A stretch of 64,000 nucleotides of DNA from Parcubacteria group bacterium Gr01-1014_8 (GTDB lineage Bacteria; Patescibacteriota; Minisyncoccia; Phycocordibacterales; UBA2100). This document shows positions 18,441-45,330 of this stretch, one piece after another. The notes under the pieces were generated by a model. It did no database searches and was not told the DNA's origin. It worked only from the letters and a program-made list of their open reading frames with translations. Position 1 is the stretch's first letter. Each line of letters begins with the position of its first letter. The position numbers and the translations under genes were made by a program. The DNA is taken from positions 320,001 through 384,000 of the forward strand of contig VMGC01000001.1 in the NCBI GenBank assembly GCA_007376385.1, in the 5' to 3' direction.

Positions 18441-19130
18441 TATTATACTGATTTGGTGGCAAAACGACGAAAAGTCGCCTATATAGCACCCTTTGATAGT
18501 GATAAGTACTATCACGTGCATAACGACGGAATTGATAGGCGAATACTATTCAGCTCCAAGCAGGATTTTGACCGCTTTGAAGCATATTTGTATCTGCTGA
18601 ATTCCACTGAAAGCCCGCGTGCGGCTAATTTTTTTACAGGCAATCGCCAGAACGAAATATTTCAAACGGGGAGAGGCGATAAATTAATAGCACTCGGAGC
18701 TTATTCGATCACGCCGCATGAATTTCACTTGCTTGCTGTGCCTCTGGTCGATGGGGGGATGGGGAAATTCATGCAGAAGCTTCAGACTGGATACACGATG
18801 TACTTCAATAGCAAGTACCAGCGTATGGGACGCATATTCCAGTCCTCATATAAGGCGGAATCAGCTCGATCAGCCGAGCATCTAAAATATATGTTCTGTT
18901 ATATTCATTTAAATCCTGCGCAGATCTTTGACAAAGAATGGGATTCGACAAACGAGAGGAGCGGACTTGCAACACACATATTGAGGGCAATGAATTATCG
19001 CTACTCGAGCGCAAATGAATATACCTCTCAAAAATTTATCATCACGACGCCGCATGAATTTCCGCCCTACATCAGAAGGGTGAGAGATGCGCGCGCGTAC
19101 TTGAAACTTTGGTCAAAGTTTAAAGAATAG
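18405..19130 (+). CDS. IS200/IS605-family Y1 (HUH) transposase-like protein, RAYT-like; variant HUH motif (HEFH)
   Basis: YYHVHNDGIDRRILF is the N-terminal Y1_Tnp motif. ITPHEFHLLAV aligns to PNHFHLML of the paralog at 32875..33561. FMQKLQTGYTMYFN and FQSSYKA carry the catalytic-Tyr region. About 50% identity to the second copy. Confidence 0.7.
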   Translation: MSTQGRTLLISAYYTDLVAKRRKVAYIAPFDSDKYYHVHNDGIDRRILFSSKQDFDRFEAYLYLLNSTESPRAANFFTGNRQNEIFQTGRGDKLIALGAYSITPHEFHLLAVPLVDGGMGKFMQKLQTGYTMYFNSKYQRMGRIFQSSYKAESARSAEHLKYMFCYIHLNPAQIFDKEWDSTNERSGLATHILRAMNYRYSSANEYTSQKFIITTPHEFPPYIRRVRDARAYLKLWSKFKE

Positions 19131-26500: not shown

Positions 26501-29500
26501 CTTGTACTTCGGTAGCGGGGACGCCGGCATCAGGGAAAGCGGTGCCAATTTGAAATTTGAGACGTATACGGGCGCTGCACTCACCGAAAAAATGAGAATT
26601 ACTGGCGCAGGCAACGTCGGCATCGGGACCACCACTCCCGCAACCCTCCTCTCCATCGCCGGCACGAGCGGCCTCTTTGCCTCCACGACCGCCACCTCCA
26701 CCTTCCAAGGCGGCGGGATTAACTTGCTCACGGCGGCGGGGAATACGGGATGCTTTGCGGTGAATGGGACGTGTCTTTCCAATACCGCTTCCGGCATCGT
26801 CGGAAGCGGCACCACCGGACAATTTCCGTACTATGCCGCCAACGGCACGACTTTGACGGCGACCTCGACACTTTTCGTCTCGACCGCGAGCAATGTTGGG
26901 ATCGGTGCCACCTCTCCCGCAGCAAAGTTAGACGTCGAAGGTTCCGGTGCGGTCTTGACCGACATCATGGTAGGCAACTCACAGGCCAATGCAAACTTCG
27001 GTATTTCCGCGGCAGGAGTTCCCCACCTTTGGACGAACAATGCCTCGTGGCCGCTTGTGCTCGGTGTCGGTGGCGCAGAGAAAATGAGAGTGCACACGGA
27101 TGGAAACGTAGGGATCGGAGCAGGTGCAACGGGTCCCGGGGCACTCCTCACGGTTGACTCTGGTGCAGCGTCTCTCACGGACATCTTGGTCGGCAACTCG
27201 CAAGCGAACGCGAATTTCGGAATCTCCGCAGCGGGCGTAGCCCATCTGTGGTCAAATAATTCAAGTTGGCCTCTTGCGTTCGGCATTGGAGCCGCGGAAA
27301 ATATGCGAATCCACACGAACGGCAACGTGGGGCTCGGGAACACCTCCCCCTCCTACAAACTCGACGTCGCAGGGTTCATCAACACCGACCAATTCTCCGG
27401 CTACAAGCAGAACGGCACGACCATTCTCTATTCATCTTCGACGCTTGCCACGATGTTCGGCGGCTACCAGGCCGGCAATGGTCAAGTGCAATCAGGAACC
27501 GGACTCTACAATACCGCGTTTGGCTATCAGGCGCTCTTGAGCGCCACGTCGTCTAGCAGAAGCACAGCGGTCGGCTTTTCAGCGCTCGCAAGTCAGGCGA
27601 ATGCCAATGGCAACGATGCGCGTAATACCGCAGTTGGTTCCCAAGCGCTCGGCGGCACAACGTACGGTTACTACAACACAGCTGTCGGCTCTGATGCTCT
27701 CGCTGCCAACACGACCGGATACTTCAACAGCGCATTTGGCCAGGGCGCGCTCACTGGCAATACGACCGGCCGCGATAACATTGCAATTGGCTACAATTCC
27801 GTGAGTCAAAGTACAGCCGCCCTCGAAAATATAGGTATCGGCAACTCCTCGCTTTCAGGAGCGTCGCTCACGGGGGCAGACAACATCGCTATCGGTCGGC
27901 AGGCTGGGAGCGCCATGTCGAGCGGGAGTTACAACATACTGATTGGCCAATATCTCTACAACAGCGGCACCGTCTTTACTGGCTCAAACAACATCATCAT
28001 CGGGCGCGACATCGGCTCGACCGCATCTCCCTTGGTTTCGACGACAACAAGCAACGCGCTCAACATCGGCAACTTGATTTTCGCGACCAGTCTCGGCACG
28101 GCGGACACTCTTTCGACGGGTAATGTGGGTATTGGAACAGCGGCACCGAATTATCAACTTTCAAACAACTCCGCGAGTAATAACCTGGATTCGGGTTCCA
28201 CGGGGCTCTCGACCGCAAGTAGTTTCAACTGGGCGAACAACGGCTCCGGCTACGGTGCAGGATTGTATAACGCAAGCGCCAATTCGGATGCAAACGGGCT
28301 GTTGGTAAAAATTCGCGGTACGGCCTCTACCAACAAAATTCTCTCGCTCGACACGGGCACGACGCAAGCCGGCGCGGGAACAAATGTGCTGACGGTATTA
28401 GGAAGCGGCAACGTCGGCATTGGGACGACGAGTCCGCGCAGCGCCCTCTATTTCCAGGCGAACAGTAGCGATCCATCGTTAACATCATGGACAGGCATAG
28501 GGACGATGCGCGCTAGTACTGGTGTAGAACTTGCGATGGGTGCAGACGATACGACACCTTTCGGCGCGTGGCTGCAAACGAAAGACAGCACAAATGGCGG
28601 TACATCCTATCCACTGCTCCTCAATCCTCTCGGCGGCAACGTTGGCATCGGGACGACTACGCCTCAAACGGCGTTGCATGTAAACGGTATTCTCGCGGCA
28701 ACGCCAAGCTACGGCTTTTACTGGTACAACGGGGCAACATTCAAAGGCGCACTCAAGCATAACTCATCCAACGATAACCTTGAGATATACACCGCCTCTG
28801 ATGGCAGCACGCCGCGGCTCACAGTCCAAAGTTCTTCCGGCAACGTCGGTATCGGGACGACCAGTCCCGTGTCGATACTTGCTGTTGCTGGTGCCAATCC
28901 TGTACTTACCCTCAATCAAACGAGTAGCGGTAATGTTTCTGGCTTAAAGATAACGAATGGAGTAAATACGCTAGGCACATTTACAGTAGCAATAGATACA
29001 GGCGAGGTCAGGATAGGTGGTACGTCTAGCGGCGGTTATTATGATACTTTCTACGCCGATGGTTCGGAAAGGATGAGGATTACAGCAGCAGGCAACGTCG
29101 GCATCGGGACGACGACGCCGCAGTGGCTTTTGAATCCGACTTCGGCAAGCGCATCACAACTTGCCCTTTCGGCGGGGGCGGGCATCGCGCAATGGACGTT
29201 TAGGAATGCAGGCGGGAATTTGTATCTCTCAACAACTACCGTTGCAGGAACCGCAACGACATCGATAAGCGCGCTTGAGATTGCGGGCGGAGGATTAGGA
29301 ACGACAACCGTGAGAGGGCTAAACATCAGCGCTGGCGCAACATCAACGTCTAATGTGGGCTTCTCACTCACGAGCGGATGCTTTGCAACGCCCGCGGGCT
29401 GTATCTCGGGCGTTGGCGATTCTTCCATCGAAGCATTGAACGACGTTGCTGCGATGACGAAAAACTTCGGTGACTTACTGTATTGGAATGGCACAACATG

Positions 29501-32500
29501 GACTGATCTAGCAACGTCGTCGCTTGCGGTAAATTTCTCCGACCTCATTGGTTCAGCGACAGATGCACAGGTTACGAATGCGCTCACAATTTCCGGCGGC
29601 GTGATTTCGGGGACGAACACGGTGTCGGGTACGTGGAATACGACAAACACGCTTACCATCGGGAACGGCGGCGACCGCATCGACGTCAATTCGAGCGGAT
29701 GGGATGTGACGGACAGCGTGATTTCAGGCGCAACCTATCAAGGCAACACGATTGGCACCACCTACGGAGGCACAAATGCGACAGGTTTCAGCAGCCATGC
29801 GCTTCTTGCATTTAACGGTACGAGCATCGTCGCAACGTCTACTATCGGCTTTCAGTCATTTAATGCGACATCAACCACTGCGACGTCGACCATTGCTGGC
29901 GGCCTTGCAGTCGAGACCTCCGGCCTCGTGTACGACTACTCGACCAACCGCGTCGGCATTGGGACGGCGAGCCCTTCCAACAAATTACATATTGCATCAT
30001 CCGCGAATGACTCAACGCTTTTCATACAGCAAACGTCTGGCACACAGCGAGCTGATATCCGGATCGACAACGACGGCGGCTATATGCTTATCGGCCGCGA
30101 AAACAGTGCTGGCGGATCACTTGCGGTCGGTTCGACCGGCTATTTTGGCGTCATGAATGTCAACAATGCCTACGGTCTGCAATTTGGTACCAACAACACC
30201 GTCCGAGCGACGATCGACTCCTCCGGCAACGTCGGCATCGGGACGACGAGTCCAGCGACTTCGCTTTCAGTATCGGGAAGCGGGTACCTCACTGGCGCGC
30301 TTGGCGTAGGCGCGGTCGCGACGGGCTTCACCAACCTTCTCGTCAATGACAACTCAAACACTGCGCACAATAACGATGAGGGTATTGTTGTGAAAAATAC
30401 AAACACTGGCAGTTCTGCCGGCGCTAGCATCAATCTTCGAAACGACGGCACATATCATGGATTCATGCAGATGAATTCTGGGGCAAACACATCATTGGCG
30501 GGAGCAAATAGTTTCAACATCGGTGCTGAGCACAACATTAATTTCGGATTCATCACCAATGATGCGCTTCAGATGACATTGAATACCACCGGTCTCGGCA
30601 TCGGGAACACCTCCCCCTCCTACAAACTCGATGTCGCGGGGTTCATCAACACCGACCAATTCTCCGGCTACAAGCAGGCGGGGAATACTATACTGTATGC
30701 GTCGAGCACGAATGCCACGGTATTTGGTGGACAAGGCGCAGGAAGCGCGATGCAAACGTCTGGAACCGGTGCGTACAACACCGCGTTTGGGTACGGTGCC
30801 CTTACTACAGCGACATCGTCTAGTAGAAGCACTGCAATTGGATTTAATGCACTCGCCAACCAAGCGAACAGTAACGGCAACGACGCACGCAACACGGCCG
30901 TCGGTTCCGACTCTTTGGCGGCAACTACGTACGGCTACTACAACGTCGGCGTCGGCGCCTCGGCGCTCACCGCCAACACGACAGGCGCTTTCAACGTGGC
31001 ACTTGGTGTCGGGGCTTTGCAGACGGCAACATCCACGAACAACGTGACTGCCATCGGCTACAACGCGCTCGGCGCTATGATTTGTTGCGGCCCGGCAGGG
31101 ACGACGCCGGCAAATGTCGTGGTAGGCCACCAAGTCGCTCGTCAAGCGACGACTGCCTACGGTATTACAGGAATCGGGTATGGCGCCTTGGATTCGCTCA
31201 CGACCGGACACGACATCGTGGCACTTGGATCGCAGGCAGGGCATATGGTCACGACTGGCACTAACAGTATATTCCTTGGCGATCTCTCCGGCTTCAAAGA
31301 CAGTGCCGGTGCGAACACCGCCATCACGGGCGACAACAATATCATCATCGGCAATAACCAGCTCATGATCCCGAACGCCGCCGGCTCCAATCAACTCAAC
31401 ATCGGCAACCTCATCTTCGGCACCAGCCTCTCAACCGGCGCGACAGTTTCGACCGGCAACGTCGGCATTGGGACGACGAGCCCACGTTCGATTCTCCACG
31501 CTGTGGCCGGTGCTTCGGGAGTTTTGCCCAACGCAGGCACGACCTTCACTATGGAGAGCAACACGGCCAACTACTTGAGCATGCTCACAGCGAGCAACGC
31601 CGCAAACGGAATTCTCTTTGGTACGCCGACGAGCGCAATCGATGCCGGCATTCTCTACAACAGCAACGGTTCGGCACGAGATTTGCAGTTCCGCACCGGC
31701 GTCAACAACACGCGGATGACGATTGATTCTACCGGCAACGTCGGCATCGGGACGACGACGCCGTTTCGCAAACTTTCTATCACGGATGCAGTATCGACCG
31801 CACAGCAAGCGATCGCGTACGACTCGACGCGCTGGACTGACCTCCTTACAGACTCTGTTGGGGATCTCACCATCAATCCGCAAGGCGACGATGTGTTCTT
31901 GAATGCGGACAATCTTTGGGTGTGTACCGGCGGCTCGTGTCCGAGCGGGACGCCAGCAGGGACGGGTAATTTGATCGTTGAAACGAAATTGGGCGTGGCC
32001 AGTTCGACACCGTTCGCGACGCTCGGTGTGAAGGGTTCTGCTGCATCGACGGCATATACGTTCATGACAACCAACAGTTCCGATTCTCCGACGTTCAACA
32101 TCCAAGATAACGGCAATGTGGGTATTGGTACCACGACGCCCACGAAACAATTTTCCATCTCGAGTCTCCTCTATGTCGGTGCAGGCGGTGCAACAGGAAT
32201 GGGAACAGCGACATCGACTTTCCAAGGTGACATCAAGATAATTGGTAAACTTGATGTCGGTACGATTGACCCGGTCTATACAATAGACGGCACGAAGTAT
32301 GCGACGTATGGTCATTCAACCGTTGGTATCAAAGAAGAGGTAACGGCAAAACTGGCAGTCAACGAGTATGACGAAGCTCGAGATTTGTATCGAACAACAA
32401 TTCGTTTCGATGAGTTGGAAAAGGGAAGCGACCTTTGGCTTTTCTATGAGATCACTCGATTCGGACTTGAATGGGAGCATCTCGTCGTGAACTTGACGCC

Positions 32501-32753
32501 GGCATTCGACGGCCGCGTGTTCTACGAAGAAGATATCGTCGAGAACTCTCTGACAATATACGCCGACAAGTCCGGCTTTGTTTCTGCGCGGCTCATCGCG
32601 GACAGATTCGACGCAGAAACGTGGCCGAACATTCGTCCTGACCAGGACGGAAATACCGAAGGCACGCACAATATAACTTCGAAATTGCCGGGAGGGGTGC
32701 TCCGAGCGGCAGCTACAGCAACCGAAGCCGTCTCATCGTGGTTCAATGAATAA
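20598..32753 (+). CDS. Giant (4051 aa) repetitive Gly/Thr/Ser/Ala/Asn-rich surface fibre protein. N-terminal cytoplasmic HTH_17-like motif and one TM helix (N-in), then about 3880 aa of extracellular beta-rich repeats
   Basis: Single uninterrupted 12,156-nt ORF. N-terminus YISAQEAATSLGFSRDYIARLARIGKVKGRQIGKNWYV. TM helix LTALITAFVLTFGAYAFV at about aa 163-182. GNVGIGTTSP-x-x-KL recurs more than 10 times. The module DVAAMTENYGDLL-WNG--W-DLATSSLGI-ISDT-GTLA--RGGTG occurs 4 times. NTA-G--AL / NTTG beta-roll-like repeats. Two segments have near-identical DNA (about 27340 and about 30604; NTSPSYKLDVAGFINTDQFSGYKQ). Confidence 0.8.
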   Translation: MSDEIFFDGVRYISAQEAATSLGFSRDYIARLARIGKVKGRQIGKNWYVEFRSVQTFVLEQEYLQGKRRKELAEKRVFEYRKQVGSTDERSSDIVAPVIFADAVSVSAKQNKRHAAIKAMLARAMSRRADLKVLAHANRVHTPSFFSVTPAVEFLHKLTALITAFVLTFGAYAFVNADYAHFALDSIRSASRSVVAVPKLVWGGDAARWGSDTGAQLAAVALQTAQSANQAESSITSFMSSAARNFNLHVNDLLYGVIYPNIPGMGSFAFSSARGRVDIQIVPYRSDAPAARSAPAPLIRTAVSAPTTVINQPIVERIRETKSVVTLGGISEELLASKLLELDTKLSSRMLSLTSSNATSITQVYNTVGQMGRIEHLDDLDLTNPTITRGTLTNVRISSLSAPLTISDGGTGTSSAPTYGKVLLGNSSGAYDLVATSSLGVGGTPGGSSTQVQFNDSGAFGADSTFTFNSTSNLLSFSSASSSLQSIFDRLYVGGTATTTIFGSATSTFGAGIETTALNVTSNSASSTFANGISLSAGCFRDASGACLQSATFAYLFPSDATTTKLTFSGGLISLASTTIGNGTQAGGLTISGGATTTGNLLVQGNATTTNLAVSGTASSSALVASNSFTFSNITGFLKATAGVVATAAINLASDITGILPAGNGGTGWGNIAANTIVLGNGTGAIATTSAGTNGQMLALVSGVPTWTATTTFSAPLVFFAGNVSIAASNGSTDGYLTSADWTLFNNKVSSSSLSTFTAAFKDWNITTNTFGQSSLAPTTTQNIAVTGVGTSTFAGGLEAWRQIGAPYFNATSSSATSTFAGGLNVLAINQTGSATSTFANGLQLSNGCIRLPSGSCLASVANSSIDDLSDVTITAAAYGDLLMHNGTAWVDTATSSLGIFISDTVGTLAVGRGGTGLSSTPTYGQLLVGNASSGYTLSATSTLGIALSDTIGTLAATRGGTGLSSITNNQLLLGGAGNTVTQIATSSLNLLTTDIIEGSRLFYTDNRVDTYIHGSTTIPKTYTANTFTGANTFNSTFTLGTLNGPLHANAGVVGATTSVLAIYGGTGQTSYSTGDILYASGAAALSKLGIGGAGEVLKISGGVPTWGTDLTSGGGADGTWSTTTSQVSGTLINYPNNASDIVAIGSTATTSAEYWFDPNTTIAYLSGKVGISTTSPYSKLTLWGSASLFEAVNTSSTTIFSIGQSGATTTNLGISGIASSLLKTTSTGGVVAAIPDTDYLNTASSIELLGDVAAMTENYGDLLYWNGSAWADLATSSLGIAISDTTGTLAVARGGTGQTTFSSSQLLYGNGTNALSSVATSSLSAGTGVTFSGTAGSLVGGTALTINTPWTISGNNIYNNNIANAAIGTSTPYATTTIWGNTASKIFEVVANASSTVFSVAQSGATTTNLGITGVTNSLLKTTSTGGVVAAVAGTDYATLSQTFGKAWEIDGNGFTGFLAPTTTQKVWIGQASSTLLSVNGPAYFGSTATSSFSTAGVLTLATDLAVTEGGTGASTLTGLLQGNGTSAFTAITDSSTVGQILRVTGASTYAWGALNLADTDAITGTLPISNGGTNNTTYSTNALLYFDGTSITATSTRPLYVGAINATTTATSTFAGGISVLNFAQTGTATSTLANGLTLTGGCVMVNGNCISPVGNSSIEDLNDVAAMTENYGDLLGWNGSTWTDFATTSLFTGSNGQMLAYANGGWTGVATTTAGTGLTYTGSAFNVDLGTSISAAEIADGDHGDFTYTSGVAAIDANAVTLGTDTTGNYVATLADSGGGTLTISNSGSETAAVTASLNLGNANIWTGKQNFFGSASSTLFSANWLKVGQTASTTFDSAGNATIGGTLNVTGQTTLATSLTGLLKATAGVVSSATEGTDYLSNALRDWSVQGNGYLAPTTTRGIIVVASSTIGAGGQATGLTISGGATTTGNAYFAGNVGVGTAAPSQKLQVVNGAIDINTDDQFLYFGSGDAGIRESGANLKFETYTGAALTEKMRITGAGNVGIGTTTPATLLSIAGTSGLFASTTATSTFQGGGINLLTAAGNTGCFAVNGTCLSNTASGIVGSGTTGQFPYYAANGTTLTATSTLFVSTASNVGIGATSPAAKLDVEGSGAVLTDIMVGNSQANANFGISAAGVPHLWTNNASWPLVLGVGGAEKMRVHTDGNVGIGAGATGPGALLTVDSGAASLTDILVGNSQANANFGISAAGVAHLWSNNSSWPLAFGIGAAENMRIHTNGNVGLGNTSPSYKLDVAGFINTDQFSGYKQNGTTILYSSSTLATMFGGYQAGNGQVQSGTGLYNTAFGYQALLSATSSSRSTAVGFSALASQANANGNDARNTAVGSQALGGTTYGYYNTAVGSDALAANTTGYFNSAFGQGALTGNTTGRDNIAIGYNSVSQSTAALENIGIGNSSLSGASLTGADNIAIGRQAGSAMSSGSYNILIGQYLYNSGTVFTGSNNIIIGRDIGSTASPLVSTTTSNALNIGNLIFATSLGTADTLSTGNVGIGTAAPNYQLSNNSASNNLDSGSTGLSTASSFNWANNGSGYGAGLYNASANSDANGLLVKIRGTASTNKILSLDTGTTQAGAGTNVLTVLGSGNVGIGTTSPRSALYFQANSSDPSLTSWTGIGTMRASTGVELAMGADDTTPFGAWLQTKDSTNGGTSYPLLLNPLGGNVGIGTTTPQTALHVNGILAATPSYGFYWYNGATFKGALKHNSSNDNLEIYTASDGSTPRLTVQSSSGNVGIGTTSPVSILAVAGANPVLTLNQTSSGNVSGLKITNGVNTLGTFTVAIDTGEVRIGGTSSGGYYDTFYADGSERMRITAAGNVGIGTTTPQWLLNPTSASASQLALSAGAGIAQWTFRNAGGNLYLSTTTVAGTATTSISALEIAGGGLGTTTVRGLNISAGATSTSNVGFSLTSGCFATPAGCISGVGDSSIEALNDVAAMTKNFGDLLYWNGTTWTDLATSSLAVNFSDLIGSATDAQVTNALTISGGVISGTNTVSGTWNTTNTLTIGNGGDRIDVNSSGWDVTDSVISGATYQGNTIGTTYGGTNATGFSSHALLAFNGTSIVATSTIGFQSFNATSTTATSTIAGGLAVETSGLVYDYSTNRVGIGTASPSNKLHIASSANDSTLFIQQTSGTQRADIRIDNDGGYMLIGRENSAGGSLAVGSTGYFGVMNVNNAYGLQFGTNNTVRATIDSSGNVGIGTTSPATSLSVSGSGYLTGALGVGAVATGFTNLLVNDNSNTAHNNDEGIVVKNTNTGSSAGASINLRNDGTYHGFMQMNSGANTSLAGANSFNIGAEHNINFGFITNDALQMTLNTTGLGIGNTSPSYKLDVAGFINTDQFSGYKQAGNTILYASSTNATVFGGQGAGSAMQTSGTGAYNTAFGYGALTTATSSSRSTAIGFNALANQANSNGNDARNTAVGSDSLAATTYGYYNVGVGASALTANTTGAFNVALGVGALQTATSTNNVTAIGYNALGAMICCGPAGTTPANVVVGHQVARQATTAYGITGIGYGALDSLTTGHDIVALGSQAGHMVTTGTNSIFLGDLSGFKDSAGANTAITGDNNIIIGNNQLMIPNAAGSNQLNIGNLIFGTSLSTGATVSTGNVGIGTTSPRSILHAVAGASGVLPNAGTTFTMESNTANYLSMLTASNAANGILFGTPTSAIDAGILYNSNGSARDLQFRTGVNNTRMTIDSTGNVGIGTTTPFRKLSITDAVSTAQQAIAYDSTRWTDLLTDSVGDLTINPQGDDVFLNADNLWVCTGGSCPSGTPAGTGNLIVETKLGVASSTPFATLGVKGSAASTAYTFMTTNSSDSPTFNIQDNGNVGIGTTTPTKQFSISSLLYVGAGGATGMGTATSTFQGDIKIIGKLDVGTIDPVYTIDGTKYATYGHSTVGIKEEVTAKLAVNEYDEARDLYRTTIRFDELEKGSDLWLFYEITRFGLEWEHLVVNLTPAFDGRVFYEEDIVENSLTIYADKSGFVSARLIADRFDAETWPNIRPDQDGNTEGTHNITSKLPGGVLRAAATATEAVSSWFNE

Positions 32754-32818: not shown

Positions 32819-32861
32819 CATCTCAAGGTCATATCGAGGTCGATATCAAGGTCGGACCTCG
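32819..32861 (+). repeat. REP-like repeat cluster, left flank of transposase-like gene
   Basis: atctcaaggtcatatcgaggtcgatatcaaggtcggacctcg: tandem atatc-a/gagg-tcg units with the hairpin cgaggtc/gacctcg. Confidence 0.55.
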
Positions 32862-32874
32862 ATACGCTTGTGTG

Positions 32875-33561
32875 TCACGGTGCCGCCGATTCCACGCGGA
32901 AGTCGAGCCATTCCGAGACCTGCGATTTAAAGTCGAGAGGCGAATCAAAGTACTCCGACAGCGCTGCGGCGTTCACGATGCGGCTCTCCAGACGTTTCTC
33001 ACGAGTGTAATCGTGAAAGCTCGACCAACGGTATCCGTCGAGGAATTTTTCCGCCGCGCGCCGGTTTGCGATGCCGGTTTCTTTCCAAGTCGGCTCGATG
33101 AGCTTGACGGGGTTCAGATGGATATACGAAACGAGGTATTTGAAGTATCGGTCGTCTGCCACGTGCGTCGCCTTATATTTCCCCTGAAAAAGGACGCCGC
33201 TTCGTTTTTGGCGGGTGTTAAAATACATCGTATACCCGGTTTGGAGCTTCTGCATGAATCGGGAAATACCGCCGTTCCTAATCTCACGAAGCATGAGGTG
33301 GAAGTGATTCGGCATGAGGCAGTGCGCGCATATGTCCACGAGCGGTTTTCCCCGATCAAGCGAGAGAAGATGGGGAAGAGAGGTCTGGATTTCGTTGCTG
33401 ATGTGCACGGTGTTCTCGCCGTTTGCAAGAAACAAAAGCGCGAGAAAGCGCTTATGGTCGGGTACAGAGGTAAAGATTTTCCGTTTTTCAGTGCCGCGGT
33501 TGTAGACATGATACGTCTCATCGACAGTAAACGGTATGCGTCTCATCTTCTGTATTTTCAC
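32875..33561 (-). CDS. IS200/IS605-family Y1 (HUH) transposase-like protein, RAYT-like
   Basis: ETYHVYNRGTEKRKIF; HUH in CLMPNHFHLML; FMQKLQTGYTMYFN; LFQGKYKATHV (Tyr); YIHLNP. Flanked on both sides by similar ~40-nt REP-like repeats in direct orientation. Confidence 0.75.
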   Translation of the reverse strand: MKIQKMRRIPFTVDETYHVYNRGTEKRKIFTSVPDHKRFLALLFLANGENTVHISNEIQTSLPHLLSLDRGKPLVDICAHCLMPNHFHLMLREIRNGGISRFMQKLQTGYTMYFNTRQKRSGVLFQGKYKATHVADDRYFKYLVSYIHLNPVKLIEPTWKETGIANRRAAEKFLDGYRWSSFHDYTREKRLESRIVNAAALSEYFDSPLDFKSQVSEWLDFRVESAAP

Positions 33562-33572
33562 TCGCGGTGCCT

Positions 33573-33693
33573 AAATATCAAGGCCCATATCAAGGCCCGA
33601 CCTCGATGGCGACGATGGCGATGGGAATGGAGATACTGTTGCCGACCGGCAGCAATATCTCAAATATCAAGGTCATATCAAGGTCGGACCTCG
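33573..33693 (+). repeat. REP-like repeat clusters, right flank of transposase-like gene
   Basis: aaatatcaaggcccatatcaaggcccgacctcgatgg (33573-33608) and atatctcaaatatcaaggtcatatcaaggtcggacctcgg (33655-33693) are near-copies of the left-flank repeat. Confidence 0.55.
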
Positions 33694-33703
33694 GGGGTGG
33701 TGG

Positions 33704-33961
33704 TTGCGCCTCGCCGCGAGGCGCTACGACACAGAAAAGTGGCCAAATCTACGGCCGGATCAAGACGGCTATACAACGGGCACGCATGTAATTAGTTCGA
33801 AGCCAAAGGCAGGCGAGCAGGCGAGGGATGAGAGCAAAGTGTCGCATGTATCGGCTGTAGTAACTGCGACCAGCGCTATCGCGCAGATCTCGTCATTCGC
33901 GACAAGTACCATTGAATTTGCGACCAGCACATTCTTCAAACTGCTAGCATGGTTTCAGTAA
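33704..33961 (+). pseudogene. Orphan 3' fragment paralogous to the C-terminus of the giant protein
   Basis: Encodes RYDTEKWPNLRPDQDGYTTGTHVISSKPK...TATSAIAQISSF, compared with the giant end RFDAETWPNIRPDQDGNTEGTHNITSKLP...AATATEAVSSWF. DNA identity is about 70%, so it is an old paralog rather than a fresh duplication. It begins inside REP-derived sequence. Confidence 0.4.
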
Positions 33962-34040: not shown

Positions 34041-34604
34041 TTGACAATGCGTAAGCGAGATTTCTTCTACATCGCACTTCTCTGCTTTCTGCCTGCAGCT
34101 GCCTTCGCGGTGACCATGACCGTAAACACTGTCGTGACGGGCAATGTAAGTGTAGTCGGAGCGCTCTCGAAGGGTTCCGGTACGTTCATGATTGATCACC
34201 CGCTTGACCCGAAAAATTCGCTCCTGTACCATTCGTTCCTCGAATCTCCTGACGTCAAGAACATCTACGACGGTGTCGCGAATCTCGACAAGAACGGAGA
34301 GGCCACGATCGCGTTACCAGGTTATTTTCTTGCACTCAACAAGGATTTCAGGTATCTCGCGACATCAATGAGCGGGCCTATGCCGAATCTGCATCTCATG
34401 CGCGGAGTTCGGAGAGAGTGGTTTGTAGGCGACCCTACATTCAGGATAGCTGGGGGCGTACCGGGCGGCACTATCTCCTGGCAGGTAACGGGTATACGCA
34501 AGGATCCTCTCATTGTCGCGAATCCTATTATAGTCGAAGTTGAAAAGGGTGCTGAAGCACTGATATTAAAGGGGGAGTGTCTCTTTGAACTCCTTTGCAG
34601 ATGA
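34041..34604 (+). CDS. Secreted protein, paralog 1 of 3 sharing an unrecognised ~140-aa C-terminal domain
   Basis: Signal peptide MTMRKRDFFYIALLCFLPAAAFA, then GSGTFMIDHPLDPKNSLLYHSFLESPDVKNIYDG...ISWQVTGIRKDP...ANPIIVEV...CLFELLC. Confidence 0.6.
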   Translation: MTMRKRDFFYIALLCFLPAAAFAVTMTVNTVVTGNVSVVGALSKGSGTFMIDHPLDPKNSLLYHSFLESPDVKNIYDGVANLDKNGEATIALPGYFLALNKDFRYLATSMSGPMPNLHLMRGVRREWFVGDPTFRIAGGVPGGTISWQVTGIRKDPLIVANPIIVEVEKGAEALILKGECLFELLCR

Positions 34605-35925
34605 ACATATAATTATCATGCACACAAAACTTTCGACATATTCGTTGTTTTGGTGGGCTCTTGCACTCATCGTCGGCATTTCTTTTTTGCTTGCGCTTCT
34701 CTTTCCTGTAGAGAGATTGTCAGCCGCGCCCACGGTAAAAATCTATCTTGATTCAGGAACATCATTCGTCATCCCCGGAGATTGGAACTCTTCAAACAAT
34801 TCTATCGAAGTTATCGGCGGCGGCGGCGGCGGCGGTACTCCAAGCGCTCTTTGTAGCGCCGGAGGAGGAGGCGGCGCATATTCAAAAGCCGCGAACGTCT
34901 CGCTTACGGCCGGTGCGTCGGTTACCTACGCTATTGGTGATCGCGGTATCGAACAGACGGCAGGGGGTGATACGTATTTTTGTAATTCGACGTTGAACTG
35001 CGCTTCCATTTCTGGTACTGCCGTGCAGGCAGGTGCGAAGGGCGGAAATGGCGCCAGCGGTGGCACTGGAGGATCTGGCGGTGCATCCGCAAGCGGCGTT
35101 GGAAGCACCAAATTTAGTGGGGGAAATGGCGCCGGAACTGGAAGCAGCACTGGCGGCGGCGGCGGAGGTGCTGCTGGACTAAATGGTGCAGGTAATAACG
35201 GCTCGGGAACAACTGGCGGTAGTGGCGATGCTGGAAACGGCGGTGCAGGTGGGACCGCAAATAATCCCGGTGGTGCGGGTACCGAATACGATTCTGTACA
35301 CGGTTCCGGCGGAGGCGGTGGCGGAGCAACGGGCGCGGGCGGTGGCGCAGCGGGAGGGAATTTTGGGGGCGCCGGCGGCGGCGGATGCGCATCTGGAGGC
35401 ATCGGTAAACGAGGGATGATTGTTCTTACGTACGTTTCGTCTGCGACTCTTACACTTTCCGGAAATGTTAAATTCGCCGGCAATTTAACCATCACTAGTA
35501 CTTTAGCAAAAAGCTCCGGCACATTTGTGATTGACCATCCGCTCACGCCGCGCACGCATCTTTTGTACCACTCATTTGTTGAATCACCGGAAGTGAAGAA
35601 TCTCTACGACGGTATTGCAAAACTTGACGCGCAGGGCGAGGTAGCAATCGAGCTTCCCGATTATTTTGAAGCACTGAACAAAGATTTCCGCTATCAATTC
35701 TTTCCTCACTTCGAAGCGATGCCTGGTCTCTATGTGAAGCAAGAAGTGAAGGACAACTCATTCATCATAGCTGGAGGAAAGCCGGGCGGAGAAATATCGT
35801 GGCAAGTCACGGGTATCCGCCACGATGCGTTTATTCTCGCAAATCCGATTATCGTTGAGGTCCCGAAAACAAACTCGACTGTCGTGCCGAGGGGTATGTG
35901 TCTGTTTGAGCCGTTATGCAAATGA
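34585..35925 (+). CDS. Secreted Gly-rich protein, paralog 2 of 3 (same C-terminal domain)
   Basis: N-terminal TM/signal. About 230 aa of extreme Gly-rich low complexity (VIGGGGGGGTPS...GGGGGGAAGLNGAGNNGSG...). The C-terminus SSGTFVIDHPLTPRTHLLYHSFVESPEVKNLYDG...ISWQVTGIRHDA...CLFEPLC is shared with the neighbours. Confidence 0.6.
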   Translation: MNSFADEHIIIMHTKLSTYSLFWWALALIVGISFLLALLFPVERLSAAPTVKIYLDSGTSFVIPGDWNSSNNSIEVIGGGGGGGTPSALCSAGGGGGAYSKAANVSLTAGASVTYAIGDRGIEQTAGGDTYFCNSTLNCASISGTAVQAGAKGGNGASGGTGGSGGASASGVGSTKFSGGNGAGTGSSTGGGGGGAAGLNGAGNNGSGTTGGSGDAGNGGAGGTANNPGGAGTEYDSVHGSGGGGGGATGAGGGAAGGNFGGAGGGGCASGGIGKRGMIVLTYVSSATLTLSGNVKFAGNLTITSTLAKSSGTFVIDHPLTPRTHLLYHSFVESPEVKNLYDGIAKLDAQGEVAIELPDYFEALNKDFRYQFFPHFEAMPGLYVKQEVKDNSFIIAGGKPGGEISWQVTGIRHDAFILANPIIVEVPKTNSTVVPRGMCLFEPLCK

Positions 35926-36647
35926 GCGCTGTTCAGAGTGCGACGGTGTGTGGCGTATTGTCACTTGTGTTGGCGATTCTTTTCCCCATGCGAACTTTCG
36001 CGGGCTACGCTGAAAGTGCGTATTACTCGCAGTCGACCTACTACTCGCAGTCGACCTACTACTCGCAGTCGACCTACTATTCACAGGGAACATATGTGAC
36101 GACGTTTAGCAATAACGCGACGGCGGGAACTAATTTCACCGTCGCGGGCACGATTAATAAAGGTTCCGGTTCATTCGTCATCGACCATCCGCTCGATCCA
36201 AAAAATAAGCTGCTCTATCACTCGTTCGTTGAATCTCCTGACGTGAAGAATTTCTACGACGGTATAGCAACGCTCGACACAAAGGGCGAAGCAGTCATTC
36301 GGCTTCCCGCGTATTTTATGGCACTCAACAAAGAATTTCGGTACCAACTAAAACCCATTGGCGGGCCGCAGCCTGATCTGCACATTAAGGATGAAATCTC
36401 AGGAAATCGCTTTACGATTGCGGGTGGCGGGCCACGCGGGCGCGTATCGTGGCAGGTCACGGGGATCCGTCATGATCCGTACATCGAAGCGAATCCTATC
36501 GAGGTCGAGGTAAAAAAAGGTACAGATCCCGAGAAAAGCGTCTTCGTGCTCTATGGAGGGTTTTTGCACGAGGACATTTATCCGCAGACGATCCAACCCG
36601 CGATATCTACATATATGAGAAAGATACTTAGTTTGTTCGGCAATTGA
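35916..36647 (+). CDS. Secreted protein, paralog 3 of 3 with (STYYSQ)x4 tandem repeat and shared C-terminal domain
   Basis: Signal peptide. AYYSQSTYYSQSTYYSQSTYYSQGTY is a perfect 18-nt tandem repeat at 36031-36084. The C-terminus is GSGSFVIDHPLDPKNKLLYHSFVESPDVKNFYDG...VSWQVTGIRHDP. Confidence 0.6.
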   Translation: MQMSAVQSATVCGVLSLVLAILFPMRTFAGYAESAYYSQSTYYSQSTYYSQSTYYSQGTYVTTFSNNATAGTNFTVAGTINKGSGSFVIDHPLDPKNKLLYHSFVESPDVKNFYDGIATLDTKGEAVIRLPAYFMALNKEFRYQLKPIGGPQPDLHIKDEISGNRFTIAGGGPRGRVSWQVTGIRHDPYIEANPIEVEVKKGTDPEKSVFVLYGGFLHEDIYPQTIQPAISTYMRKILSLFGN

Positions 36648-36697: not shown

Positions 36698-37888
36698 ATG
36701 AAAAGGTCCACAGTGCTTTACGCCGTGTCCGCTCTTGTTATTGGAGGTTTTCTTGCGTACTGGTTTGTTCCTCTCGGGCCTGCATATTCTGAAGCAAATA
36801 CCATCGCGGATGGAGCATCAAATTTTAAAGAGCTCGCGGCGCGCTTCGGCGATCTCGCTCGCGAAAAGGGAGGAGCATATGCATTCGAGGTGTTGAAACG
36901 CGCTGAATTGCCGCCGAATACTGACCTGCATTTGTTGGGACATGAGGTCGGAAACATTCTATACGAACAGAAAGGTGTCGATGGTATTGCGGATTGCACG
37001 CAGGATTTTAGAAACGCCTGCTCGCATGCAATTGTTATCGGCGCTTTGAATGAGTTCGGCGGTGAGGCTGCATTACCTCTCATAAGCGATGCGTGCAAAA
37101 AGGCTCCAGGCGGAAGCGGAGCGTACACGATGTGTTATCACGGACTTGGCCATGGCGTGTTCGCGTTCTACAGCTATGACCTTTCAAAAACCGCTGAATT
37201 TTGCAGAAAGACCGGGACTCCCGAATACCACGAACGAGAATATGTTGAATGCGTCGGAGGTTCGGTGATGGAATTGATGGGAGGAGGCGGGCATGATAGG
37301 GAGGCGTGGCTTGCGGCGAGGGAGAAATATCTCGACCCGCATTCACCGCTCTCGCCGTGTATGGACAGCGCTGTGCCGGAAAGAGCGAAAATAATGTGCC
37401 TTACATATCTGACACCTCGTCTGTGGGAATTAGCAGGTATTGATATGGGAAACCCCTCACCTCATATGTTTGCAACTGCGTTCTCGTATTGCGATGCGAT
37501 CCCTCGCTCTCGCCCAGAACTTCGCGGTGCCTGCTACGGAGGGTTTGGCAAAGAATTCTTTCCGCTCGTAGCCTCGCGCGATATTCGCGATGATGTATCG
37601 TATTCAGACAGGCAACTCTCTACCGTCATCGATTGGTGCAGTTTTGCAGGGGATGTCGAAGGAACGTATGCGTGTGTGGGGGATGCGGTTGCGTCCGCAT
37701 TCTGGGGTGGGGAGAAAGATCCGAAAACAGCGTTTAGGCTCTGCGGCGCAGCAGATGGAACGTTGCAAGATGCATGTTTCGAACGACTCGCCGATGAAGT
37801 GACGATGTATATGCGAGGAGCAGAGAAAGATGAGCTATGCGCGCAGATCCCCGCACGTCTCGAGACCAAATGTTCAAAAAGTAGTTAG
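36698..37888 (+). CDS. Exported Cys/His-rich protein, family member P1 (unrecognised family)
   Basis: N-terminal TM anchor. Motifs DCTQDFRNACSHAIVIG, MCYHGLGHGV, ECVGGSVMELMGG and more than 14 Cys. Paralogous to 8 other genes in 37.9-55.2 kb. Confidence 0.65.
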   Translation: MKRSTVLYAVSALVIGGFLAYWFVPLGPAYSEANTIADGASNFKELAARFGDLAREKGGAYAFEVLKRAELPPNTDLHLLGHEVGNILYEQKGVDGIADCTQDFRNACSHAIVIGALNEFGGEAALPLISDACKKAPGGSGAYTMCYHGLGHGVFAFYSYDLSKTAEFCRKTGTPEYHEREYVECVGGSVMELMGGGGHDREAWLAAREKYLDPHSPLSPCMDSAVPERAKIMCLTYLTPRLWELAGIDMGNPSPHMFATAFSYCDAIPRSRPELRGACYGGFGKEFFPLVASRDIRDDVSYSDRQLSTVIDWCSFAGDVEGTYACVGDAVASAFWGGEKDPKTAFRLCGAADGTLQDACFERLADEVTMYMRGAEKDELCAQIPARLETKCSKSS

Positions 37889-37889
37889 T

Positions 37890-38933
37890 ATGCGGTTTCT
37901 GATGTGGATGGGCGGAGGAGTGCTTGCCGCTCTTTTTTCGTTTTTCCTGTTCCATTCATTGTATGCTGGGGGCGATCTATTCGTGCCGCATGAGTACGCA
38001 CCATTCGAAGAACAACGTGCGTATTGGCAACATCTCATCGAAAAAGAAGGTGCCGAAAACGCTCTCACTGCATTTTCTGTCCGAGTCGGATCATTATCTC
38101 TGAATACGCAGCATCAATTGGCTCACTCGTTCGGCGCTGCGCTTTTCCAGGCGGAAGGTATTGGTGGCATTTTCATATGCGATGCGCGATATTCGTTTGG
38201 TTGTTTCCATCAGTTCTTAGGAGATGCGATACAGGCGCTTGGTATCGAGCGTGTTCCGGATCTGAACACACGTTGCTTTGATGCGTCATCCGTAAGTCCC
38301 ATTTCTTGTACGCACGGCATTGGTCACGGGGTCCTCGCCTCGCTTGGGTATGATGATATAGCTCTCCAAAAAGGGCTCGAGATATGCAAAGGTCTGCCGG
38401 GAACGGAGCCCATTGGAGGATGTTATGGAGGCATTTTTATGGAATACAACGTACGCACAATGCTCGCAGAGCAGGCGACGGTACGAGAGTACGAAGGAAA
38501 TGTGTATGCGCCATGCGATTCGCTTGCGGCTGAATTTGTTCAAGGTTGCATATATTGGCAGCCACAATGGTGGCTTGTGACAGTGCTTGATGGGGTCTCT
38601 TCGGAAAAAGCGTATGCGAAAATGGGTTCATATTGCCGAGAATTCGCAAAAACACCGGAGTTATTGCGTGCATGTTTTGAAGGCTTGGGAAATATTGTCG
38701 AAGATGAGGCGGAGTATGAGCCATTGCAGGCGCGGAGGCTTTGTGACGCCGCAGGCGCGGGTACTCTGAGCAGCGTATATTGTCGCTCCGTCGGCGCGAA
38801 TCATTTTGGCATTGATGGCGGGGAAGATCAGGCTGTGTTGGTGTGCGAAGATCTTCAAGGAGACAAGAGAGCATATTGTATGGCGTATGCAAAAAATGAG
38901 ATAGGCCTCGCGCCGGAATTACGTGAATTATGA
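37890..38933 (+). CDS. Exported Cys/His-rich protein, family member P2
   Basis: Start placed at MRFLMWMGGG, right after the P1 stop. Motifs CFHQFLGDA, SCTHGIGHGV and GCYGGIFMEYN. Confidence 0.6.
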   Translation: MRFLMWMGGGVLAALFSFFLFHSLYAGGDLFVPHEYAPFEEQRAYWQHLIEKEGAENALTAFSVRVGSLSLNTQHQLAHSFGAALFQAEGIGGIFICDARYSFGCFHQFLGDAIQALGIERVPDLNTRCFDASSVSPISCTHGIGHGVLASLGYDDIALQKGLEICKGLPGTEPIGGCYGGIFMEYNVRTMLAEQATVREYEGNVYAPCDSLAAEFVQGCIYWQPQWWLVTVLDGVSSEKAYAKMGSYCREFAKTPELLRACFEGLGNIVEDEAEYEPLQARRLCDAAGAGTLSSVYCRSVGANHFGIDGGEDQAVLVCEDLQGDKRAYCMAYAKNEIGLAPELREL

Positions 38934-40063
38934 ACCGTTTATTTCTCGTAGTAATTGTGTTTATAGCGTTCGCTTTTATGGGATGGCAGGTGTGGGGCGA
39001 TGTGGACCCATTTGCTGAGTGTACCGGAGTCCATCGCAACGAATGTCTGGGCGCTGTCCTCAAAGAGATGGCAGATGTGCAGGGGATCGCGGCTGCGTTC
39101 GAGTCATTTACAGAACTTTACGACGAGCCGGATTTCACGAAAGATTGCCATCCAATAGTGCACGAAATGGGAAAAGGCGCATATGAGCGGTACAAACGAG
39201 GAAAACCACTCGAGGCGGTTCATGAACTTTCCTATTGCAGCTACGGTTTTTATCACGGATTTTTGGAAGCCATGGTACCGGATACTGGAGACCCCAAAAA
39301 GGCTCGTGAGTTGTGCGATAAGTTACAAGATGGCGTGACGGACGGCAGATCAGTTATCGGTCCTTGTCTTCATGGTTTTGGTCATGGGGTGACAGACGGC
39401 ACGAGGCCAGAGCGTTGGGGGAGTTTTGAGACCATGTCTGAGCCTTCGCTCGAGATATGTTCGTCTATCGCGCGACGTGATGATGAAAAAATGCTCTGTG
39501 CAGGCGGAGTTTTCAACGCGATCTCTATCATGTCGCTTTACAAGAAAAATGGGCTTGTCATTGATAAGGTGCATCCATACGCTCCGTGCGAGAAGCAAAC
39601 AGATGTGCGTGTCCGTGAGGCTTGCTTTCGGAATTTTCACCCGACAGTTTCTCATATAAATCATGAGCATTTTTTGCTTGCAGCGCACCAGGTTGAGGCA
39701 TTAGAGAAGGATGCGGATGCAATTCCCGCGATGGAGAACCTTGCGATCTATCAGTCAAGGAGGATGACCGAAGAATACACGGACCCATATATCGCTGCCT
39801 TTTGTCATCGAGTCCAGCCGCGGTTGCAGAACATGTGCGTAGAAGGTTTCGCGGTAGGTTTTCTTATCTTTGGCACACCAGGCGAAGAATATGAACGCGC
39901 TCTCACGTTCTGTCAGAATACCGAACTTCGCGGTGAACACGAGGAGCATTGCCTCAGACGAGTCATACAGTCTTCGAAGCAGCAATATTCAAGGGACGTG
40001 TATAAAAAAGTATGCATGAAAGTTCCGAGAGCGTTTCAGTACCTTTGCGAAGAACCCGCGTAA
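38930..40063 (+). CDS. Exported Cys/His-rich protein, family member P3
   Basis: Motifs DCHPIVHEMG, YCSYGFYHGF, PCLHGFGHGV and LCAGGVFNA. ATGA overlap with P2. Confidence 0.65.
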   Translation: MNRLFLVVIVFIAFAFMGWQVWGDVDPFAECTGVHRNECLGAVLKEMADVQGIAAAFESFTELYDEPDFTKDCHPIVHEMGKGAYERYKRGKPLEAVHELSYCSYGFYHGFLEAMVPDTGDPKKARELCDKLQDGVTDGRSVIGPCLHGFGHGVTDGTRPERWGSFETMSEPSLEICSSIARRDDEKMLCAGGVFNAISIMSLYKKNGLVIDKVHPYAPCEKQTDVRVREACFRNFHPTVSHINHEHFLLAAHQVEALEKDADAIPAMENLAIYQSRRMTEEYTDPYIAAFCHRVQPRLQNMCVEGFAVGFLIFGTPGEEYERALTFCQNTELRGEHEEHCLRRVIQSSKQQYSRDVYKKVCMKVPRAFQYLCEEPA

Positions 40064-43245: not shown

Positions 43246-44114
43246 CGTAAAGATCCGCGATAATCAGCGAGTCGGATGGAAAAGACGATATGCAGGATCG
43301 CCCAGATATAAAAGAAGAGCGGAGGGAATACATACGCGAGTACGATAGAACCCCACGCGGTATATGCAAATAGCGCATACAGAGCAAAAACAATGGCATG
43401 GATCGCAAGCATATCCTTCACATATGCACTTTGACGGTCAGGCTTGCTTCCGAATCGAAAATAAAAGTGCACGTACCAGCATACGTAATGCAGCAGAATG
43501 ACCGAGCCGGTGAGTTTTGTCGATGAAACTTGAATGTCAAAAAACCACAACGCAAATAGTCCTGCGGTGATAAGCAAAAGATACGCACTCAGTGCATCAG
43601 GACGGTATGTTCCGATCGCAATGCTCGCGACATAGGGAACTAGCAACACGATCGCGAGCATGACAAGAGACGAAGAGAATGTGGCTCCCAACATATATCT
43701 TGAGATAAGAGCTGTGAAAAGAAGCACTGGCGGCAACTGTTCAAGAGCGCGAGAGAGAGAACGTTCCTTCCCGAAGAGCGTCACTTCATCCTGAAAATGA
43801 TGTATGAAAAACACTACAGAAGCGACGAGAGCAAACCATGCTACTTGATCCGTTAGAATGGCAAGTGTGAACAGTGCAGTTGTAAGAGTAACGAATGCAG
43901 CGACCCACGTCATCGTCATCTTACCGGCTTTCCATTGGTAGTAGTATGCCCCGAGAAAATGACCTTGGCCGAAGATACTGAATGCGAGTCCGACCTGCAG
44001 GGGAGAAAGGTAGTAAACCGCAAGCGCGACAATGGCGAGGCCAAGCGATTTTTGTATGACCAATTCACGTGTCATAGTAGAAGTATGGTAGCACATACTG
44101 GCATATGAAATCAC
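43239..44114 (-). CDS. Polytopic membrane protein of unknown function (~8 TM)
   Basis: 291-aa hydrophobic ORF overlapping the lnt start by 7 nt. No motif recognised. Confidence 0.45.
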   Translation of the reverse strand: MISYASMCYHTSTMTRELVIQKSLGLAIVALAVYYLSPLQVGLAFSIFGQGHFLGAYYYQWKAGKMTMTWVAAFVTLTTALFTLAILTDQVAWFALVASVVFFIHHFQDEVTLFGKERSLSRALEQLPPVLLFTALISRYMLGATFSSSLVMLAIVLLVPYVASIAIGTYRPDALSAYLLLITAGLFALWFFDIQVSSTKLTGSVILLHYVCWYVHFYFRFGSKPDRQSAYVKDMLAIHAIVFALYALFAYTAWGSIVLAYVFPPLFFYIWAILHIVFSIRLADYRGSLRW

Positions 44115-45304: not shown

Positions 45305-45330
45305 ACACTATTTACTCAATTGTTGGCACA

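Follow-up and report, generated by a model that had tools for sequence, protein, structure and literature searches.

This analysis concerns three adjacent genes for secreted proteins that end in a common domain, located in a 64,000-nucleotide (nt) stretch of the genome of Parcubacteria group bacterium Gr01-1014_8 (GenBank assembly GCA_007376385.1, contig VMGC01000001.1, positions 320,001 to 384,000 of the forward strand). The whole of this stretch is called the window, and positions are counted from its first letter. A first-pass annotation, made from the sequence alone, had described three tandem secreted paralogs here. All three are present on the + strand as open reading frames (ORFs) at 34041-34604 (187 amino acids, aa), 34585-35925 (446 aa) and 35916-36647 (243 aa), and the three are intact. 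In NCBI the first is TSC87233.1 (185 aa, ATG at 34047) and the second TSC87234.1 (446 aa, TTG at 34585), both labelled hypothetical proteins of 'Parcubacteria group bacterium Gr01-1014_8'. The genes belong to three types, A, B and C, and their shared domain is termed foot-like after the phage-type fibre tips that it resembles in predicted fold. Their features are:

34047-34604, + strand: type A gene (paralog 1), 185 aa; the longest ORF runs from TTG 34041
34047-34109, + strand: signal peptide of paralog 1, MRKRDFFYIALLCFLPAAAFA, next residue V
34110-34166, + strand: beta lead-in of paralog 1, 19 aa
34167-34601, + strand: foot-like domain of paralog 1
34347-34367, + strand: type motif FRY-LAT of paralog 1
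34410-34433, + strand: A-specific loop insertion RREWFVGD of paralog 1
34578-34598, + strand: C-terminal CLFELLC of paralog 1
34585-35925, + strand: type B gene (paralog 2), 446 aa (TTG 34585) or 435 aa (ATG 34618)
34618-34725, + strand: hydrophobic signal or anchor segment of paralog 2
about 34726-35436, + strand: Gly-rich module of paralog 2
35437-35505, + strand: beta lead-in of paralog 2
35506-35922, + strand: foot-like domain of paralog 2
35686-35706, + strand: type motif FRY-QFF of paralog 2
35899-35919, + strand: C-terminal CLFEPLC of paralog 2
35916-36647, + strand: type C gene (paralog 3), 243 aa
35916-36002, + strand: signal peptide of paralog 3
36003-36095, + strand: Tyr-rich repeats of paralog 3, AYYSQ and then STYYSQ three times
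36096-36155, + strand: beta lead-in of paralog 3
36156 to about 36581, + strand: foot-like domain of paralog 3
36336-36356, + strand: type motif FRY-QLK of paralog 3
36582-36644, + strand: amphipathic C-terminal tail of paralog 3, 21 aa

Paralogs 2 and 3 overlap by 10 nt, an arrangement conserved in related genomes, and the ATG of paralog 3 is embedded in the Leu-Cys codons that end paralog 2. The overlap of 20 nt between paralogs 1 and 2 is conditional, because it needs the TTG at 34585; a second gene caller starts paralog 2 at ATG 34618 (435 aa), which leaves a gap of 13 nt. The earlier view that the two overlaps imply one operon stands in so far as there is one overlapping gene set with a conserved 10-nt junction, but its 20-nt junction hinges on the choice of start. 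Secretion is borne out by signal-peptide-like N-termini in all three proteins and by a hydrophobic N-terminal segment in 119 of 124 homologues, most of those inspected ending in an AxA-like site.

Across the ~145 C-terminal residues the three paralogs are about 51% identical in pairs, 77 columns being invariant, and the shared C-terminal domain, initially put at about 140 aa, contains all of the motifs that had been quoted for it. A hidden Markov model (HMM) of the domain, built from homologues, finds paralogs 1, 2 and 3 at E 6e-83, 4e-69 and 9e-68, and no further copy in the window below E 0.6. One detail had to be amended: paralogs 1 and 2 end in C-L-F-E-x-L-C as described, but paralog 3 carries the amphipathic 21-aa tail instead. 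When cellular and viral members are aligned, the family-wide motif reads G-x-L-x-K-x-s-G-t-F-x-I-D-H-P … L-x-H-x-F-v-E-x-P … i-Y-x-G … W-x-V … R-x-D, and conservation is strongest in its first half. The domain opens with a strongly conserved segment, K-G-S-G-T-F-x-I-D-H-P ... L-x-H-x-F-x-E-x-P, and continues as a jellyroll-like beta-sandwich; in the K-G-S-G-x-F motif the Lys is invariant and the Ser/Gly nearly so.

The first-pass annotation did not recognise this domain, and neither do the curated collections. No Pfam or NCBIfam family matched at E<=1, PADLOC gave no match, and a 35-sequence profile found nothing among the PDB sequences at E<=1. Two xylanase carbohydrate-binding modules (E 0.007) in the first profile search of PDB sequences vanished with the deeper profile and were judged spurious. 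In PHROG the window proteins match families of unknown function, weakly (E 0.0018-0.009). A word-indexed search returned more than 2,100 matches, in which the named proteins are all hypothetical and the named organisms are Patescibacteria. The exhaustive profile search, which covered 1.84 billion cluster representatives (clusters at 50% identity), retrieved 14,656 proteins at E<=1e-3 and 6,246 at E<=1e-30, so that the family comprises at least 14,656 such clusters without a curated model. Among the best 150 of the 14,656 representatives the match lies almost always at or near the C-terminus of the protein, behind N-terminal parts of 0 to ~1,000 residues, and a Pfam scan of ten long homologues found Laminin_G_3, DUF7483 and DUF5907 in such parts.

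Species-representative genomes with the domain belong to Paceibacteria and their relatives, Ignavibacteria, Bacteroidota, Chloroflexota (including the cultured Dictyobacter kobayashii), Acidobacteriota and Planctomycetota. In Paceibacteria it typically occurs as three adjacent genes, whereas in the other phyla it ends long single-gene proteins, most of them with clear signal peptides. The searchable literature yielded no description of the domain or of the gene triad in Patescibacteria; the papers found were those on the pyocin and AP22 structures. What is newly recognised is a very large uncurated family, its stand-alone form with a signal peptide, and its conserved three-type operon in Paceibacteria, in many cases beside a giant fibre gene.

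To define the types, the domain HMM was applied to 75 genomic loci and 31 triads were aligned. The three types differ as follows:

Type A: usually the first gene, second in four loci; loop insertion of ~8 aa; F-R-Y-L-A-T; end usually K-G-E-C-x-F-E-P-L-C or K-G-E-Y-L-F-P-E-F-Y
Type B: second gene; no insertion; F-R-Y-Q-F-F; end usually C-x-F-E-P-L-C
Type C: always the third gene; no insertion; R-Y-Q-L-K; C-terminal tail of 15-40 aa

Every one of the 31 triads has exactly one tailed gene, always the third, and 28 have exactly one gene with the loop insertion; paralogs 1, 2 and 3 of the window are textbook A, B and C. Of the 93 proteins, 72 have their nearest relative from another genome at the corresponding triad position. 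Adjacent genes overlap in 61 of 71 pairs, 42 of these by 10-11 nt. The triad is not a recent local duplication, as judged from the alignments, which show all three types repeatedly, in 31 Paceibacteria loci. The tail of type C is amphipathic in 26 of 31 cases, with a mean helical hydrophobic moment of 1.48 against 1.01 for shuffled sequences.

Before the domain, mature A and B consist of a beta lead-in of 18-20 aa and little more, and type C in most loci inspected has Tyr-rich repeats (YYSQ, YYQG, YYYAQG) in variable number, followed by an equally long lead-in. The N-terminal parts, which had been said to differ completely, do not vary freely: there are three conserved types, and the Tyr-rich repeats, earlier given as (STYYSQ)x4, are a conserved type C feature. 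In a similar way the N-terminal part of paralog 2, which had been read as near-pure low complexity, is indeed Gly-rich (~230 aa; 35% Gly, 75% Gly, Ala, Ser, Asn and Thr together), but it is a recurring module that is also found in homologues. It matches Pfam PF21722 (Gly_rich_2) at E 3e-4 and 21.3 bits, under the cut-off of 24.3, over profile positions 12-225 of 226. Modules of this kind, starting …SGTSW(T/F)VP.DWN….IEVIGGGGGG, occur sporadically at the N-termini of type A or B proteins (loci L003, L007, L016, L026, L029 and L053). Its distribution is that of a mobile decoration on the foot proteins.

Six loci with domain genes of the Paceibacteria type (L008, L025, L027, L039, L041 and L053) come from metagenome-assembled genomes (MAGs) labelled Ectothiorhodospiraceae, Hyphomicrobiaceae or Hyphomicrobiales. 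One of them, L008, has a full triad and a homologue of the fibre C-terminus described below, and L053 has the Gly-rich module; these are probably mis-binned contigs.

The domain had been linked to fibre proteins, and this link holds: it ends phage tail fibres, and the triad often lies behind a giant fibre gene. A tblastn search against 50,697 phage records matched ten, at 30-35% identity and E down to 4e-6. The match in Prochlorococcus phage P-SSM2 is the C-terminal end of a 1,170-aa 'tail fiber protein' (PSSM2_295), and that in Arthrobacter phage Mufasa8 is the C-terminal part of a 'minor tail protein' (gp19), whose gene adjoins those for the tape measure and other minor tail proteins; the domain HMM matches PSSM2_295 and gp19 at E 1e-9 each. 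A scan of IMG/VR gave 46 loci with the domain (E down to 5e-55), most of which encode proteins of 400-2100 aa with 10-30 residues after it. When nine of these proteins were scanned, several N-terminal parts matched PHROG families annotated as 'tail fiber protein', 'tail protein' or 'minor tail protein', and the C-terminal parts aligned to positions ~300-458 of phrog_17834. Homology to phage tail-fibre C-termini is well supported at the sequence level.

The closest viral homologues (IMG/VR loci L078-L080, 50-54% identity) lie on two contigs of one giant-virus MAG (GVMAG-M-3300017963-10) and on a 394-kb viral contig. Very large viruses may use the domain too, or these bins may hold cellular DNA.

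Paralog 1 was modelled as a monomer with AlphaFold2 from a 35-sequence alignment. The mean predicted local distance difference test score (pLDDT) is 77 and exceeds 90 in the beta-sandwich core (residues ~70-160); residues ~45-66, the most conserved segment, are modelled poorly in the monomer. The 8-aa insertion specific to type A falls in a loop between two strands. Foldseek against the PDB places the R2 pyocin tail fibre (6ct8, 6cl6) and AP22 gp53 (4mtm) as the top three matches (E 2e-3 to 8e-3); the lectin SLL-2 appears weakly at rank 47. The predicted fold, a foot-like jellyroll beta-sandwich, is well supported by these comparisons, the moderate Foldseek scores giving support at the level of the fold and not proof of homology. 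In sequence the triad genes fall into an uncurated family that includes C-termini of phage tail fibres, and in predicted fold they group with the foot of pyocin and AP22. The R-pyocin foot itself is a trimeric, discoidin-like jellyroll lectin (Salazar et al., PMC6363177).

Upstream of the triad lies the following gene:

20598-32753, + strand: giant fibre gene, 4051 aa

Its product has ~50 N-terminal residues that look helix-turn-helix (HTH)-like by eye, a hydrophobic segment near residues 160-180, and a fibre of ~3,500 aa rich in Ser, Thr, Gly and Ala with GNVGIGTTxP and 'SSIEDLxDVAAMTENYGDLLxWNG' repeats; Pfam gave no match. The conserved C-terminal ~320 aa are predicted to form a beta-sandwich like that of pyocin feet and H-type lectins, followed by a terminal amphipathic helix. 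The G+C content of the gene is 0.54-0.56, that of its flanks 0.46-0.51. In 28 related loci the flank holds a homologue of these ~320 C-terminal residues, at 50-60% identity, and in several of these the end of the giant-type gene lies no more than a few nucleotides from the first triad gene; by a strict measure, an end less than 1.5 kb upstream of the triad, the two are adjacent in 15 of the 39 loci that could be assessed. Just upstream of the giant gene the window encodes a 317-aa protein with an N-terminal HTH_17 domain (19321-20274) and a second, weaker Y1_Tnp-like ORF (18405-19130; E 0.003, under the Pfam cut-off).

A search for the triad domain at the C-termini of giant proteins had also been suggested. 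By eye there is some likeness between …G-K-L-D-V-G-T-I-D-P… and V-S-A-R-L-I-A-D-R-F-D in the giant and, in the triad, V-S-W-Q-V-T-G-I-R-K-D. Sequence kinship was rejected on a profile-profile hhalign probability of 0.2%; the profile-sequence comparison aligned only the 20-residue lead-in, at a probability of 1.5%. For the giant of this window a shared fold class, as predicted by modelling, is what is supported.

The order of a fibre gene followed by small genes bears on the proposal that the domain is a C-terminal assembly or anchoring module, a trimerisation nucleus or chaperone-like unit, with A, B and C folding, capping or anchoring the giant fibre in trans. Phage gene modules likewise place assembly or chaperone genes after the fibre gene, and a highly conserved extreme C-terminus is characteristic of folding nuclei, for instance the T4 fibritin foldon and the endosialidase-type C-terminal chaperone. 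Conservation of the domain is very strong, and widely different fibre proteins carry it at their very end; its invariant Lys and nearly invariant Ser/Gly in K-G-S-G-x-F would fit such a role, release of endosialidase-type chaperones being autoproteolytic, at a conserved Ser and by a Ser-Lys dyad; and the amphipathic tail of type C could dock to a partner. We found no specific sign of an anchoring or chaperone-like function, however. The domain has no match at E<=1 to Peptidase_S74 or any chaperone family in Pfam or NCBIfam, and the structural matches include no chaperone and correspond to the mature, distal receptor-binding foot. No anchoring or known cell-wall-binding module (SLH, LysM, sortase signal, C-terminal domain of the type IX secretion system, T9SS) was seen among the Pfam and NCBIfam matches, and phages, as well as phyla that lack a T9SS, have the domain too. 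The giant fibre has a foot-like C-terminal domain of its own, and chaperoning in cis would have no substrate in mature A and B, because these consist only of the 18-20-aa lead-in and the domain. We consider such a module quite unlikely.

Between the giant gene and the triad, and after the triad, the window contains:

32831-33961, strand not assigned: insertion between the fibre gene and the triad
32875-33561, - strand: Y1 (IS200-like) transposase gene, Pfam Y1_Tnp at E 1e-8
33704-33961: remnant ORF, 85 aa, its first ~55 residues 56% identical to the C-terminal end of the giant
36698-37888, 37830-38933 and 38930-40063, + strand: three Cys-rich paralogs of 396, 367 and 377 aa

A 33-nt repeat in three copies (32831, 33575 and 33663) flanks the transposase gene. 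The remnant ORF looks, from its sequence, like the 3' end of a different fibre gene that was replaced, and not like a target-site duplication. The triad had been placed directly downstream of the giant gene and an insertion sequence (IS)-like element; the link to the giant recurs, but the IS-like element is an insertion peculiar to this genome. Related transposase genes lie close to the triad in loci L013, L015, L023 and L055.

The three Cys-rich proteins have a hydrophobic N-terminal segment and repeated C-x-H-G-x-G-H-G-like motifs, with no match in Pfam, NCBIfam or the PDB sequences. Homologues of the first (36698-37888) occur in 34 loci; of the 50 loci that could be assessed, 28 have such a gene beginning less than 1.5 kb downstream of the triad. 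Because such homologues directly follow the triad in many Paceibacteria loci, the Cys-rich proteins may belong to the same system. Two ORFs at 44105-46446 match some of the same homologues, and they too have no Pfam, NCBIfam or PDB match.

A transposase and a gene remnant directly upstream, together with a domain common to phage tail fibres and viral contigs, could be taken to mean that the triad is a degenerate prophage or tailocin remnant, that is, leftover tail-fibre fragments without a cellular role. We regard this as very improbable. The ORFs are intact and have signal peptides, which virion proteins lack; the three-type set with conserved overlaps recurs in 30 other genomes; and the transposase insertion is limited to this genome and a few others. 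The surroundings are chromosomal, with SecA, GatB, glycosyltransferases, asparagine synthase and an O-antigen-ligase-like protein, and with an apolipoprotein N-acyltransferase gene on the other side of the triad region, and no other phage structural gene was seen among them. A prophage origin of the region was rejected on account of these housekeeping neighbours.

The reading that we favour, and to which we give about an even chance, is that the products of the triad, coupled in their translation, form a lectin-like foot complex, probably a heterotrimer, within a cell-surface fibre system. The A, B and C genes would be co-transcribed and coupled in translation through their 10-11-nt overlaps, giving equal amounts of products, each of which would be exported by Sec and have its signal peptide cleaved. 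The equally long beta lead-ins (~20 aa) and the conserved segment would then intertwine, bringing one A, one B and one C into a pseudo-threefold heterotrimer. This complex would be a surface module that binds a ligand, probably a glycan, and it would work with the neighbouring giant fibre, whose tip models as foot-like; the Tyr-rich repeats and the amphipathic C-terminal helix of type C could dock it to a partner or to the envelope. Lectin-like binding is suggested by the fold class. A heterotrimer is suggested by the one-of-each composition, the conserved overlaps, the equal length of the lead-ins and the position of the type-specific residues on one strand.

These type-specific residues also bear on a rival possibility, namely that the genes specify three independent homotrimers, such as the single-gene homologues presumably form, with differing N-terminal decorations (none, Gly-rich module or Tyr-rich repeats) and specificities, the gene order reflecting co-regulation only. 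Strict type-specific columns are few (only two above a 75% within-type threshold), and with 64 columns identically conserved in all three types homotypic interfaces may stay viable. The single-gene homologues of other phyla and of phages must function without partners, the additions at the N-terminus are of very different sizes and shift between A and B, and the number of domain copies varies. When columns were ranked by mutual information, however, the top type-discriminating ones were three consecutive residues, L-A-T in A, Q-F-F in B and Q-L-K in C, on one confidently modelled strand: small (A-T), bulky (F-F) and charged (L-K) side chains at positions where the single-gene homologues shown, from other phyla and the closest viral ones, have mostly Q-L-T. 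The one-of-each composition (tail in 31/31 triads, insertion in 28/31) and the equally long lead-ins before the domain in all three types likewise speak against separate homotrimers, and the conserved 10-11-nt overlaps favour equimolar synthesis. We therefore hold the homotrimers to be rather unlikely.

Several observations nevertheless weigh against the heterotrimeric foot complex, which is a proposal from comparative genomics. The domain is 55-80% identical across genomes, far above what is usual for phage receptor-binding tips, so that a structural or assembly role fits the conservation at least as well as ligand recognition does. Unequal N-terminal additions, such as the 230-aa Gly-rich part on B, would also suit three separate homotrimers; the domain is present in two, four or dispersed copies in some genomes; and a giant fibre gene beside the triad is frequent but not universal. 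Identity between types within a genome (~63%) equals that within a type between genomes (59-63%). In loci L032 and L044 the C-terminal halves are identical in all three paralogs (e.g. …NTRVSWQVTGIRQDPFILANPIEVEVEKGPDALVDKGEYLF in L032), the type-specific middle strand and the tails being kept. These identical halves and the equally high identity within genomes point to gene conversion between the tandem genes, which blurs the orthology of types A, B and C.

A more specific form of the foot-complex reading may be put forward tentatively, as possible if somewhat doubtful: a phage foot domain would have been domesticated and split into three obligate chains that are not interchangeable, forming a 1:1:1 asymmetric heterotrimeric lectin with three different binding sites between subunits that serves as the host-recognition module of a giant-fibre attachment apparatus. 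If true, this would be the first heterotrimeric member of an otherwise homotrimeric fold class, a symmetric viral receptor-binding module turned asymmetric and cellular, and a candidate determinant of host specificity in uncultured episymbiotic Paceibacteria of the candidate phyla radiation. To our knowledge, very little is known of how Paceibacteria attach to other cells; knowledge of attachment in Patescibacteria concerns mostly the type IV pili of Saccharibacteria. The giant fibre, the three foot-like proteins and the Cys-rich membrane proteins form a conserved cluster that is a testable candidate for an attachment apparatus. The family itself spans secreted fibre-like proteins of many phyla, phage tail fibres and contigs binned as giant viruses, and a Pfam-type model together with one solved structure would annotate thousands of 'hypothetical' proteins.

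Four known systems may be compared with the triad. The phage tail-fibre C-termini (PSSM2_295, gp19 and the C-terminal parts of PHROG 17834 and 17490) are true sequence homologues at 30-35% identity, and they share with the triad domain the family motif and the placing at the extreme C-terminus. The phage proteins are single-gene products of 350-2100 aa without a signal peptide, whereas the triad proteins are small, secreted and encoded by three genes; the cellular form also has ~25 further residues at its end (…P-E-V-E-K-G…C-x-F-E-P-L-C), which the phage form lacks. Both PHROG families are listed as 'unknown function', and the phage proteins with the domain are functionally uncharacterised.

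The feet of R-type pyocins (PA0620; PDB 6CL6, 6CU2 and 6CXB) and of gp53 of the Acinetobacter phage AP22 (4MTM) are C-terminal, distal fibre domains like that of the triad, although profile searches of the PDB sequences found no sequence similarity to these solved domains. In pyocin the foot is preceded by an intertwined shaft whose trimer axis holds an H-x-H metal site, and the variable distal loops of the foot have been proposed to bind sugars of lipopolysaccharide (PMC6363177). The triad counterparts of this His motif are I-D-H-P and H-S-F. Pyocin feet are homotrimers on a virion-like particle and highly variable between subtypes, whereas the triad domain is highly conserved, has a signal peptide, stands nearly alone and comes in three paralog types.

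H-type lectins have been grouped with the pyocin foot as trimeric jellyroll lectins (PMC6363177). Members of this group (Helix pomatia agglutinin, the C-terminal domain of discoidin I/II and the octocoral SLL-2) match the C-terminal domain of the giant fibre structurally. The fourth system is complement C1q, whose A, B and C chains are products of three clustered genes and whose C-terminal jellyroll domains assemble into a 1:1:1, pseudo-threefold, ligand-binding head. It differs from the triad in its long collagen stalks and in its fold family (C1q/TNF), which is absent among the structural matches. With three paralogous chains, adjacent genes and a C-terminal jellyroll in each, C1q provides a working analogy for the triad and for the heterotrimer that we infer.

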